This document shows positions 22,875-51,567 of a stretch of 64,000 nucleotides of DNA, piece by piece. Below the pieces are notes generated by a model that saw nothing but the letters and a program-made list of their open reading frames with translations, searched no databases and was not told where the DNA came from. Position numbers and translations under genes: made by a program. Within the stretch, counting starts at the first letter, position 1; each line of letters opens with the position of its first letter. Origin of the DNA: Eledone cirrhosa (Eukaryota); contig OZ024743.1 in assembly GCA_964016885.1 (NCBI GenBank), positions 320,602,001-320,666,000 on the forward strand, given 5' to 3'.

Positions 22875-22985
22875 ATCCAGAACAATCTTTCCCTGTAAAT
22901 CCATTCAGACATTTACATGTGTAAGATGAACCATTCGGTTGGCAACTTCCTCCATTTTTACATGGTTTCTTGAAACATGGATCAA
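22875..22985 (-). CDS. EGF exon copy 11 (VDPCFKKPCKNGGSCQPNGSSYTCKCLNGFTGKDCSG)
   Basis: ttacag acceptor, gtgaga donor; 111 nt, phase 1 to 1. Confidence 0.9.
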
Positions 22986-24315
22986 CTGTAACATCAAATT
23001 TATGTAATGAAAGATTTGCTTTGATGATTTGTGTTCGAATTTCTGTTTAAGATGATGTTGAATATTTAAGATATATGAACTGAACAGCATATCTGTAGGA
23101 TTGATAATTTATTATAACCTTATTACTTAAAATATAAGATTATTACAGATTAACTAACATTTCTAATTAGTTAATCAGGCTATACATTGCATTTACCCTG
23201 TTATGTAAAGTAGATTAGCCGACTCTTATTTGCGTTTTTGATAGATAAATACTGCTTCTCATTCCATGGACAGATTTCGGGCATTGTGTACTAGATAAAA
23301 CGTCTGTAAAATCTCGAAACAAGTCAGATCGATCTAATAATTTCTGACTACAAAGAGATTTGAACTATGGTAAGCCATTTTCTTTACTTTTCATAACAGA
23401 CCTAAAATAGTATCTTTGTTAACTTATATATGTATATAACTTATATTTCGAATGATAAAATCTTTGTAGGGAACAAATAAATACAGACCTAAATGTCGTA
23501 TTGCTGATAGAAATGATTGAAATGTAACCAATGGTAAAGTTTTCAAAAACAAAAACTAACTTTAAATCAACTATGATACAGAAGATCATAAGAGAAGCTA
23601 TATATTTTCATACGAGTGTCATTAAATAGTATACCAACAGCAACAACAACAACAAAAACTAATAAAACTAAGAGGAAATACATTTGAAATACGATGTTTT
23701 CACTTTTTAATTATTTCAAATGTCTATATTTAGAAAATGAAAATGTTTATTGAAAGTTTAAAAGAAAAACATTTGAGCAAAATCTAAAATAAGTGTATAT
23801 ATTTGTATTTCTTCGCTGGTAGCAGTCAGGGGACTGCAGTGATAATTTGACATAATGTTTAAGGTTCGTTTAGTCTATTGTGACCAGTCCACTAATTTGA
23901 TTGGACTTTCATTCCACACAATTCCCCCGCTCTCTCTCTCTATATATATATATAAACAGGGAGAAAAAGACGATTATTAGGAGGAAAACTATATTTTTTT
24001 ACTTTATATATATATATATAGTGTAAGATAGTAATATGGACGTAAATAAGAGAAGAAACCCCTCATCAGCTGTTAACTGCGATCATAGATGTTTTGGCAC
24101 TTAGAACAGTACATCGAAATCGATCAGCAGCGCGCCCATGGCCTTTTATCTATCAAAAGGCCGCCGTGAGGGAAAAAGAGAAAAATAGTGAAGAGAGAGG
24201 AAGAAAGAGAAAAAGGAAATAGGCAAAAAAGAAGTAAACAAACCGAGTGATGTATAGCTAATATTTGATATATCAAGGAGAATAATATTGATATCAAAAT
24301 GTAATATTTTCTCAC

Positions 24316-24426
24316 CTCCAGAACAATCTTTCCCTGTAAATCCATTCAGACATTTACATGTGTAAGATGAACCATTCGGTTGGCAACTTCCTCCATTTTT
24401 ACATGGCTTCTTGAAACATGGATCAA
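24316..24426 (-). CDS. EGF exon copy 10 (NGSSY, LNG)
   Basis: Intact splice sites, 111 nt, six Cys. Confidence 0.9.
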
Positions 24427-24659
24427 CTGTAAAATCAAATTTATGTAATGAAAGATTTGCTTTGATGATTTGTGTTCGAATTTCTGTTTAAGATGATGTT
24501 GAATATTTAAGATATATGAACTGAACAGCATATCTATAGGATTGATGTTATGTGCATGTATATATAATAATATTTCGGTTATACAGATAAACATATATAT
24601 AATAGCAAGTATACATGGTCATGTTTGTTTACAACGAGGATTTTAACTCTAAACAGTGC

Positions 24660-48621: not shown

Positions 48622-48732
48622 CTCCAGAACAATCTTTCCCTGTAAATCCATTCAGACATTTACATGTGTAAGATAAACCATTCGGTTGGCAACTTCCTCC
48701 ATTTTTACATGGCTTCTTGAAACATGGATCAA
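48622..48732 (-). CDS. EGF exon copy 2 (NGLSY, LNG)
   Basis: Intact splice sites, 111 nt. Confidence 0.9.
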
Positions 48733-51456
48733 CTGTAAAATCAAATTTATGTAATGAAAGATTTGCTTTGATGATTTGTGTTCGAATTTCTGTTTAAGAT
48801 GATGTTGAATATTTAAGATACATAAGCTGAACAGCATATCTGTAGGATTGATGTTATGTGCATGTATATGTAATAATATTTAAGTTATACAGATAAACAT
48901 ATATATAATAGCAAGTATACATGGTCATGTTGTTTACAACGAGGATTTTAACTCTAAACAGTGCTCAAACACTCTTTCCAGCAGTTCCTGTCAGAAGCTA
49001 CCTGTCTCTAAATGATCCGGCTGGATCCCCAAGCCTTACCAGCCAGCTCATGGATGTTATCTAACCATCTTGCTCGGGATCTACCCCTGGGTTTCTGCCG
49101 CTTGGTTTTGTCCGTAAAGTATGTCCAGCGATTCTTACCTGACACATTCTAACCACATGCCCACAGTATCGGAGCTGTGATCTCTACATTCGGAGAAGTT
49201 GCGGCTCTACATAGAATGAGTCTCAAATCCCCGTTACTCTAAATACCCATCAGAGGAATTCTATTTCTGCCACTTGTATTCGCGATCGTATTCTTCGGTC
49301 ATTACAAAAGATACATGACCATAGGTAAGGGTTGGCAGGAAAAATTAATTAAAGATAGCGAGATTGGCTTTTACGCCTACATCCCTTCTGAATGCTGTAG
49401 GTGGCGAATTACTACTCCAGCTTTTGCAATTCTTGCATTTAATTCAGCCTCCTGCCTTCCATCACTCGTGAACACGGCCCCGAGATACTTGAACTTCTCT
49501 ACCTGCTTCAGTGAAACTCCATTCATATGTAGCGTGCAGTGTTCAGGCTTTCTTGAGTGGACGAGTGTCTCAGTTTTTGAAGCACTGATTTTCATTCCAG
49601 CCATGCAGCACTCGGCATCAAACCTATTATGTCGAACAGCTGCTGTCATGTGTGGGACGCATCCAGTTGTCAGCCGGGTCCATCGTGAGGATCACCCTGC
49701 CGCCTTCATTTAAGAACGAAGGAGAGACGGTTTTTCTCTGTCTGGTGGCTATGGCGAGAGAGGTAATATGGTGGACGATGTTAAAAAGACTGAGGGCAAA
49801 TACCTTTCTCTCCGGACAACAACTTATCCCCTTCTTTAAGTATCACTTCAGAAGGAAGGTGAGAGTGGAGAGAGAGGTGTTACACCCCAGTAAATTCGCT
49901 GAAAGGTGGGTGAATGTGGCACAAATGCACCGTGTGAATGGGCCCTCTCTATATATAAACCTGTAGGTTGACTAAGATAAACAGAGGGAAGACAGGAACA
50001 CCTACAAAACGTGTTCTTGGTGTTGAGGGTTGTTCTATCCACGGGGTGTAAAACAACCCTGCAGTAACGTTCCCCCATACTGGGGATTTCAATTGTTATA
50101 TTATTATATATAGTTTATTGTTATTTATTAATGTTAAAGTTATTTTTATGTAAAACCCCCGCCGTTACGGCTTGTAATGTCCCATTTTTGTACGCCCCTC
50201 TGGCAATTAAAGAAAGATATCTATCTATCTATATATCTATCTACTTCTCTCTTATATTCTTTGGAAGAAACCAGCTGTATTCAAACTTGGAGAGGTGACG
50301 GGCGCTGCCTGTGTTAAAATATCACAAACACGTTATATGTCAAGACAATGCCTTTATGACACCATCAGCTATTGACGGCTATACATATATACAACCATAT
50401 CACGTTAATGATAATTTTGGATAGAAATGTTAGATAATTTATTATAACCTTATTACATAAAATATAAGATTATTACAGATTAACTAACATTTCTAATTAG
50501 TTAATCAGGCTATACATTGCATTTACCCTGTTATGTAATGTAAATTAGCCGACTCTTATTTGCGTTTTTGATTGATAAATGCTGCTTCTCATTCCATGGA
50601 CAGATTTCGGGCATTGTGTACTAGATAAAACGTCTGTAAAAACTCGAAACAAGTCAGATCGATCTAATAATTTCTGACTACAAAGAGATTTGAACTATGG
50701 TAAGCCATTTTCTTTACTTTTCATAACAGACCTAAAATAGTATCTTTGTTAACTTATATATGTATATAACTTATATTTCGAATGATAAAATCTTTGTAGG
50801 GAACAAATAAATACAGACCTGAATGTCGTATTGCTGATAGAAATGATTGAAATGTAACCAATGGTAAAGTTTTCAAAAACAAAAACTAACTTTAAATCAA
50901 CTATGATACAGAAGATCATAAGAGAAGCTATATATTTTCATACGAATGTCATTAAATAGTATACCAACAGCAACAACAACAACAAAAACGAATAAAACTA
51001 AGAGGAAATACATTTGAAATACGATGTTTTCACTTTTTAAATATTTCAAATGTCTATATTTAGAAAATGAAAATGTTTATTGAAAGTTTAAAAGAAAAAC
51101 ATTTGAGCAACATCTAAAATAAGTGTATATATTTGTATTTCTTCGCTGGTAGCAGTCAGGGGACTGCAGTGATATTGTGACATAATGTTTAAGGTTCGTT
51201 TAGTCTATTGTGACCAGTCCACTAATTTGATTGGACTTTCATTCCACACAATTCCCCCCCTCTCTCTCTCTCTCTCTCTCTCTCTCTCATCGATCAAAAT
51301 GCCGCCGTGAGGGAAAGAAAAGAAAAATAGTGAAGAGGGAGGAAAAAAGAGAAAAAGGAAATAGGAAAAAAAAAGTAAACAAACCGACTGATGTATAGCT
51401 TATATTTGATATATCAAGGAGAATAATATTGATATCAAAATGTAATATTTTCTCAC

Positions 51457-51567
51457 CTCCAGAACAATCTTTCCCTGTAAATCCATTCAGACATTTACAT
51501 GTGTAAGATGGACCATTCGGTTCGCAACTTCCTCCATTTGTACATGGCTTCTTGAAACATGGATCAA
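51457..51567 (-). CDS. EGF exon copy 1 (VDPCFKKPCTNGGSCEPNGPSYTCKCLNGFTGKDCSG), the most divergent copy
   Basis: Intact splice sites, 111 nt. Confidence 0.9.

Follow-up and report, generated by a model that had tools for sequence, protein, structure and literature searches.

Eleven tandem EGF exons inside a predicted secreted VWA/VWD protein gene of Eledone cirrhosa

The EGF exon array and its host gene

The sequence analysed here, referred to as the window, is a stretch of 64,000 nucleotides of the 3.0-Gb genome of Eledone cirrhosa (C4:320602001-320666000; C4 is contig OZ024743.1). On its minus strand, between positions 22875 and 51567, eleven EGF exons of 111 nucleotides each lie head-to-tail inside one gene, hereafter the array gene. 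Comparison of the window with itself, a check suggested in a preliminary description of this DNA, gave a tandem array spanning approximately 22.8 to 51.7 kb. The exons (E1-E11) and the one short intron are as follows.

51457..51567, minus strand: E1, first in transcript order and most divergent (3-6 differences from the others)
48622..48732, minus strand: E2, array EGF exon
45619..45729, minus strand: E3, array EGF exon
42629..42739, minus strand: E4, array EGF exon
39639..39749, minus strand: E5, array EGF exon
36649..36759, minus strand: E6, with a two-base Asn-to-Ala change in common with E8
33592..33702, minus strand: E7, array EGF exon
30467..30577, minus strand: E8, with the two-base Asn-to-Ala change in common with E6
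27411..27521, minus strand: E9, array EGF exon
24316..24426, minus strand: E10, array EGF exon
22986..24315, minus strand: I10, short intron of 1330 bp without the LINE block
22875..22985, minus strand: E11, last exon, T at donor position -1

All eleven exons have six Cys and phase 1-1 boundaries, start after an AG acceptor and end at a GTGAGA donor, and none contains a stop codon. The retention of splice sites and Cys described earlier was thus confirmed, the only deviation being the final base of E11, which is T instead of G (donor GAT/gtgaga) and leaves the frame intact. With exons of 111 nucleotides, phase 1-1 boundaries and junctions free of stops, in-frame skipping is possible for any subset of exons, as had also been proposed. 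Spacing from exon start to exon start was 1441, 3095, 3056, 3125, 3057, 2990, 2990, 2990, 3003 and 2835 bp. Nine of the ten array introns are 2.7-3.0 kb long and carry a remnant of a long interspersed nuclear element (LINE); I10 lacks it and is likely a deletion derivative of a long unit. The earlier picture of eleven exons in approximately 3-kb units of exon, intron and LINE therefore holds for the exons, but for only nine of the ten introns.

The Pfam EGF profile matched above its cut-off in both array copies scanned (two of the eleven). EGF_CA matched neither of them, and a calcium-binding EGF of the fibrillin type was therefore rejected. A genome-wide DNA search with the array exon returned 18 matches. 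Eleven were 96-100% identical and all of these lie inside the window, while the remaining seven, at 70-72% identity, are the single EGF exon of the array gene and of its paralogs.

No difference was found between introns I3 and I4, or among exons E2-E5, which might indicate that a short array had been over-expanded during assembly. The other array introns differ by 0.35-3.9%, however, and exact repeats reach at most 4,169 bp. Word depth was taken over contigs from three runs of one sample, possibly the source of the assembly; it is not a copy number and hence serves as a consistency check of the assembly only, not as an independent one. In the three runs the depth was 7.3, 10.3 and 12.3 for a unique 2.2-kb contig, 52.4, 73.6 and 61 for an array intron contig and 60.7, 78.8 and 66.1 for an exon-bearing contig. 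Relative to the unique contig, the intron contig gave 7.2, 7.1 and 5.0 against 7.2 expected from the 31-mer multiplicity of the assembly consensus, and the exon contig gave 8.3, 7.7 and 5.4 against 8.7. Read depth thus agreed with the array, being roughly consistent with about 8-11 copies, give or take one or two units. One run fell short (5.0 against 7.2), but the other two matched the expected ratio. Over-expansion of a short array is considered most improbable, although an error of one or two units could still be present. Two runs of restriction-site-associated DNA sequencing from other samples covered the non-repeat parts of the unit at a depth of approximately 1 or lower, which is too shallow for counting copies.

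The model of the array gene was built from Pfam domain calls and AG/GT splicing; TIL and TILa matches fall below the Pfam cut-off. Outside the array, the following exons and pseudo-exons were located in the window.

63611..64000, minus strand: VWA1 exon, running on to window-equivalent 64177 (Pfam and splicing)
60359..60609, minus strand: VWD1 N-terminal exon with GDPH motif
58046..58353, minus strand: VWD1 C-terminal exon, 78% identical to O. sinensis LOC118762594
56708..56979, minus strand: C8 exon of module 1
55695..55888, minus strand: TIL exon of module 1, Pfam match below cut-off
54275..54449, minus strand: TILa exon of module 1, Pfam match just below cut-off, phase 1 end ahead of the array
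19684..20054, minus strand: VWA pseudo-exon, frameshifted and decayed, common to the paralogs
18821..19387, minus strand: VWA2 exon with DxSxS motif, 98% identical to VWA1
15310..15435, minus strand: EGF pseudo-exon, donor GT and one Cys lost, ratio of non-synonymous to synonymous divergence (dN/dS) about 1.2, common to the paralogs
14418..14528, minus strand: single EGF exon following VWA2, 72% nucleotide identity to the array exon
4045..4295, minus strand: VWD2 N-terminal exon with GDPH motif
2958..3265, minus strand: VWD2 C-terminal exon
1001..1275, minus strand: C8 exon of module 2
377..576, minus strand: TIL exon of module 2, followed left of the window by TILa and two PAN exons (C4 320.599-320.590 Mb)

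In the flanking DNA, two signal-peptide exons with an EGF exon were found on the upstream side, and the TILa and two PAN-like exons on the downstream side. The predicted spliced order is signal peptide-(EGF)-VWA-VWD-C8-TIL-TILa-EGFx11-VWA-EGF-VWD-C8-TIL-TILa-PAN-PAN, about 1,840 amino acids, to which the array contributes 407. With AG/GT splicing no stop interrupts the frame over the exons that run from the EGF at window-equivalent 70537 to PAN2, both included. The model ends at PAN-PAN, and the last exon of the array gene is not among the modelled exons. In the translation a DxSxS motif is present in both VWAs and a GDPH motif, at which cleavage may occur, in both VWDs. The earlier placement of the array, in one frame with a VWD-C8-TIL assembly before it and a VWA domain after it, was found to be correct except that a TILa exon sits between the TIL of module 1 and the array. 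The signal peptide is split over two exons (window-equivalent 70427-78888). An inverted repeat of 1.1 kb with 92% identity (9075-10158 and 11031-12145) was observed in the intron ahead of VWD2.

The proteins closest to the gene were Octopus proteins. O. sinensis LOC118762594 (P0021, XP_036357280.1; named 'von Willebrand factor-like' or 'zonadhesin-like') has the same module order in one chain, SP-VWA-VWD-C8-TIL-TILa-VWA-EGF-VWD-C8-TIL-TILa-PAN-PAN (SP, signal peptide), and is 77-78% identical to the array gene in VWD1. VWD1 grouped with the first VWD of P0021 with support of 91/92 and 92/91 (below the starred threshold); trees of module 2 and of C8 did not resolve the placement. The homolog differs in its two N-terminal VWAs and in a Pro/Thr linker that takes the place of EGFx11. 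In all 12 of its isoform models the first TILa is followed by this short linker and then by VWA, with no EGF in between. Of 200 candidates in a search for more co-linear homologs, three were returned: P0021 itself and two distant proteins. The comparison with P0021 supports one gene and a lineage-specific array. The array is recent and in frame.

The alternative is two genes, in which an upstream gene would stop at or after the last EGF exon and the VWA would start a second one. The T at position -1 of the last donor fits this, as does the reading frame that runs on past the last EGF exon to a stop 16 codons further, and the paralogs without module 1 are complete genes. The only signal-peptide exons found are, however, upstream of VWA1, the O. 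sinensis homolog carries both modules in one protein, and A or T also ends other exons spliced into VWA. Two genes are for these reasons regarded as very improbable.

The repeat unit and the gene cluster

Each unit is made up of the exon, approximately 230 bp similar to the intron that precedes the first copy, 480 bp similar to a VWA intron, and a 1.3-kb retroelement remnant. In a representative unit these parts are located as follows.

41852..42332, unstranded: unit segment, 90-93% similar to the intron that precedes the VWA exon of the array gene and of two paralogs
39977..41266, unstranded: composite retroelement remnant, present in nine units
39977..40644, unstranded: part of the remnant, a high-copy repeat without Pfam match, unclassified
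40643..41266, unstranded: part of the remnant, 3' end of a LINE with endonuclease, reverse transcriptase and zf-RVT

The 40643-41266 part shares 73% identity with the C-terminal end of a 1,150-residue open reading frame (ORF) with Exo_endo_phos, RVT_1 and zf-RVT domains, although a Pfam scan of the LINE fragments in the units recognised none. The 39977-40644 repeat is presumably RTE-like. The LINE previously noted in the units was therefore upheld for the 40643-41266 part, by homology to an endonuclease and reverse transcriptase LINE, while the remnant as a whole is composite and its other half unclassified. Among 40 scored matches out of 2848 candidates, the joint of the remnant was near full length in 17, all within the gene cluster described below. 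The same composite joint was seen in the intron at window 6273-7176 and in two paralogs, B and T.

The units are mosaics. Introns I6 and I8 pair with each other and so do I5 and I7, in alternation, while I2-I4 form a recent block. Which units are nearest neighbours changes along their length, and the four-gamete test failed for 521 of 1596 informative site pairs. Such mosaic units and failures fit gene conversion and unequal crossing-over, with a two-unit duplication among the events, and we infer that exchange of this kind lies behind the array. Unequal crossing-over had been proposed earlier as the amplifier, and unit spacing, mosaic relations and site incompatibility all speak for it. Retrotransposition of the exon driven by the LINE was rejected, as the copies are tandem and intron-bearing.

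Ten VWA exons of 97-100% identity on C4 319.98-320.90 Mb belong to the array gene and four paralogs. The paralogs (C4 319.95-320.93 Mb) are 95-97% identical to the array gene, and all four lack a 44.8-kb block comprising VWD1-C8-TIL-TILa-EGFx11-VWA. This block is bracketed by a direct repeat around the VWA exons.

18078..21866, unstranded: direct repeat, 97-99% identical, in common with 62868-66001

The apparent crossover of the block-less paralogs falls inside this VWA direct repeat. A close second copy of VWD1 was not found among 31 genome matches. As the Octopus homolog has both modules, the simplest reading is that the four paralogs would have lost the block by deletion between the VWA repeats.

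Paralog T (C4:320192805-320254193) has a tandem array of its own, made up of five 14-kb VWA+EGF units spaced 14183, 14091, 14044 and 14042 bp apart. All VWA splice sites in these units are intact, and diversity is 0.4% in exons against 0.7% elsewhere.

Function of the copies and of the encoded protein

The array exon and the single EGF exon of the same gene differ by a synonymous divergence (dS) of 0.88 and a non-synonymous divergence (dN) of 0.34 (dN/dS about 0.4, Fisher p 0.02), and all Cys and both splice sites are kept between them. The neighbouring EGF pseudo-exon had lost its donor and one Cys by a dS of 0.23, with dN/dS near 1.2. On these rates the founder exon of the array was long functional and under purifying selection.

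The array protein is likely secreted, of a surface or mucus type, by analogy with its Octopus paralog LOC115209496 (A0A7E6EPG6). For this paralog 8 spectra from 6 peptides, falling in the VWA, VWD, C8, TIL and PAN regions, are reported in the covered part of an O. vulgaris skin-mucus table (PMC10138644). Consensus sites for POFUT1 and EOGT, as given in PMC9672378, are present in all eleven array repeats, and each repeat may thus carry O-fucose and O-GlcNAc. A variable Ser/Leu/Pro site creates an N-glycosylation sequon in three of the eleven copies (E6, E10 and E11). An EGF domain is an estimated 2.5-3 nm long; on this per-domain figure a chain of eleven would measure approximately 30 nm.

Kilobase-sized units of exon and intron, the addition of a whole domain per unit with the frame preserved, and high identity together with signs of exchange are structural marks of intragenic coding tandem repeats. 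Inclusion of the units in mRNA and protein and a copy number that differs between individuals, both of which the array may be predicted to show, also belong to this kind. By its structural features the array is another case of the repeat type of LPA KIV-2 and DMBT1, and not new in kind. The KIV-2 unit comprises exons and introns. Like the array described here, human LPA KIV-2 is a kilobase-sized tandem unit within the gene of a secreted protein, its 5.5-kb repeat occurring in 5 to more than 50 copies (PMC12022141). The array differs in having a single EGF exon per 3-kb unit and an unrelated domain. DMBT1 (salivary agglutinin), a mucosal glycoprotein, also has a tandem array of Cys-rich domains; its 7-21 SRCR domains are set by copy number, and copy number rather than splicing determines isoform size and bacterial binding (PMC9038570). 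Its repeats are SRCR and bind, whereas the EGF repeats of the array are more likely a spacer.

The reading we favour, and consider rather probable, is that the eleven units are recent, in frame and all spliced in, forming a spacer whose exact length is near-neutral. One long-functional EGF exon would have been expanded by recent unequal crossing-over into eleven tandem units of exon and intron, and all copies would be spliced in by default, by analogy with DMBT1. A chain of roughly 400 residues would thereby be inserted after the first VWD assembly and ahead of VWA2, where it may act as a spacer setting the reach between binding modules. Array length would be expected to vary between individuals. 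The exact copy number is probably nearly neutral, and nothing indicates tuning by selection.

Several observations weigh against this reading. Variable sites are as frequent in the exon (8 of 111) as in the intron (170 of 2645; Fisher p 0.69), and the exon changes comprise one synonymous, six non-synonymous and one at the junction, as expected under neutrality given 22 synonymous and 86 non-synonymous sites. The gene also carries the two pseudo-exons, EGF and VWA, which shows that duplicates can be lost, and the block that holds the array is missing from all four paralogs. The donor of E11 is less typical than that of the other copies. The model is incomplete at its 5' end, where a stop arises when the second signal exon is spliced straight onto the first EGF exon; either the model lacks a micro-exon or the first EGF exon is skipped. 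Finally, the mucus peptides belong to a paralog and not to the co-linear homolog; neither six identifiers of that homolog nor five EGF-repeat peptides had a match in the covered part of the PMC10138644 table.

The retention of Cys and splice sites was previously taken as a sign that the copies function. This could not be maintained. Array diversity is 1.9% in exons and 2.2% in introns, and 7 or 8 random changes would spare every Cys without creating a stop 18-23% of the time. As the copies diverge at the intron rate, their intact Cys and splice sites prove nothing about copy function, and retention as evidence of selection was rejected. There is no signal of selection among the eleven copies, which are too young to judge.

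The exon divergence at the intron rate, the two pseudo-exons and the absence of the block from the four paralogs would also be expected of a passenger array, a neutral by-product of a recombination-prone locus in which most copies are skipped or the gene is silent, so that protein length is unaffected. Against this, the splice signals of the copies match those of the long-selected founder and are identical to each other, leaving no obvious cause for skipping, and the flanking exons of module 1 are all intact and conserved with Octopus. A passenger array is therefore thought unlikely.

Spacer length could instead be set mainly by variable in-frame skipping within one animal and not by genomic copy number. 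Every array junction is in frame and stop-free. The O. sinensis P0021 models vary at the junction, where the Pro/Thr linker is shorter in two of 12, and lose a VWA (three of 12) or TIL-TILa (three of 12); one paralog has isoform models with 5 and with 2 EGFs. These isoforms are, however, database gene models, the splice signals of the array copies are near-identical, and in DMBT1, as cited above, it is not splicing that sets isoform size. Tuning by splicing appears quite unlikely, and inclusion of all eleven exons by default is retained as the preferred reading.

Relation to other proteins and arrays

Gel-forming mucins are marked by a long Pro/Thr/Ser (PTS) region, a C-terminal cystine knot and VWD-C8-TIL assemblies. 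Two such assemblies are present in the array gene. Neither a long PTS region nor a C-terminal cystine knot was found in the modelled exons, which end at PAN-PAN, or in homolog P0021; membership of the gel-forming mucins was rejected and the label 'gel-forming' used earlier was dropped. In zonadhesin, MAM domains and mucin repeats precede the VWD series (PMC1325057). No MAM was found in the exon model or in a Pfam scan of proteins P0021 and P0013, and zonadhesin was rejected on this ground. FCGBP has serial VWD assemblies, 13 in human and 7 in mouse, and its GDPH is autocleaved without covalently cross-linking the mucus (PMC8267560). It was rejected because the array gene has only two assemblies with EGF and VWA between them, although GDPH is shared. 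The array gene is like all three groups in its VWD-C8-TIL assemblies with GDPH. Among the proteins of limpet adhesive mucus, some combine vWFD with 6 or 11 EGFs (PMC7333891), and P-vulgata_1/2 resemble the array gene in this respect. The array gene differs from all of these proteins by having just two assemblies together with VWA and PAN, and by lacking a PTS region, a cystine knot, MAM and a membrane anchor in its model.

Other members of the family have repeated modules as well. LOC115209496 shares the family architecture, SP-VWA-EGFx4-VWD-C8-TIL-TILa-PAN-like tail, and its four similar, near-identical EGFs are consecutive in the database model; it has one module and is 57-65% identical to the array gene in VWA and VWD. 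The O. vulgaris database models CAI9720130.1 and CAI9720129.1, which are adjacent, show 5 and 7 VWA starts, and a relative in O. bimaculoides has 21 EGFs in three runs (database model). A topic search of mostly non-subscription literature gave no title on this array, and in the same type of literature no paper naming the Octopus homolog accessions in its main text was found. The main text of PMC11431876 does not name loci of the array family.

We tentatively suggest, as an unlikely extension, an octopod family-wide 'accordion' of secreted VWA/EGF/VWD proteins. A different phase-1 module would be amplified or deleted in each lineage or paralog, giving reach and valency that vary between individuals in skin mucus and are kept by selection as at DMBT1. 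Instances are EGF in the array gene, VWA in O. vulgaris, VWA+EGF in the neighbouring paralog T and deletion of the VWD module in four paralogs. The array is a clean invertebrate coding macrosatellite, with distinguishable copies, an array-less homolog and sister paralogs that took other routes, and the gene family is a natural experiment in gain, homogenisation and loss of phase-1 exon modules. Such arrays collapse in short-read assemblies and escape ORF tracks. If copy number varies and alters mucus properties or microbe binding, the array would be a cephalopod counterpart of DMBT1; otherwise it is no more than what a recombination-prone cluster ordinarily produces.

Coding macrosatellites are common in the Eledone cirrhosa genome, and the EGFx11 array is therefore less surprising.

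Further family exons were seen elsewhere. Lone PAN-like exons in opposite orientation lie at C4:320736422-320736775 and C4:320838996-320839385, with no other family exon found nearby. At C2:167389373-167492325 four VWD exons are spaced about 33-36 kb apart, probably another module-scale array. A family member at C4:1500001-1560000 has repeated VWA and VWD-C8-TIL-TILa modules, some of them near-identical. On C107:10292-152156, 65 of 150 scored VWA matches form a much larger coding macrosatellite, a long array spaced at 1.64 kb and then at 2.8-3.3 kb; two adjacent units are identical at 1634 of 1644 positions, apparently with a Pro/Thr micro-exon.

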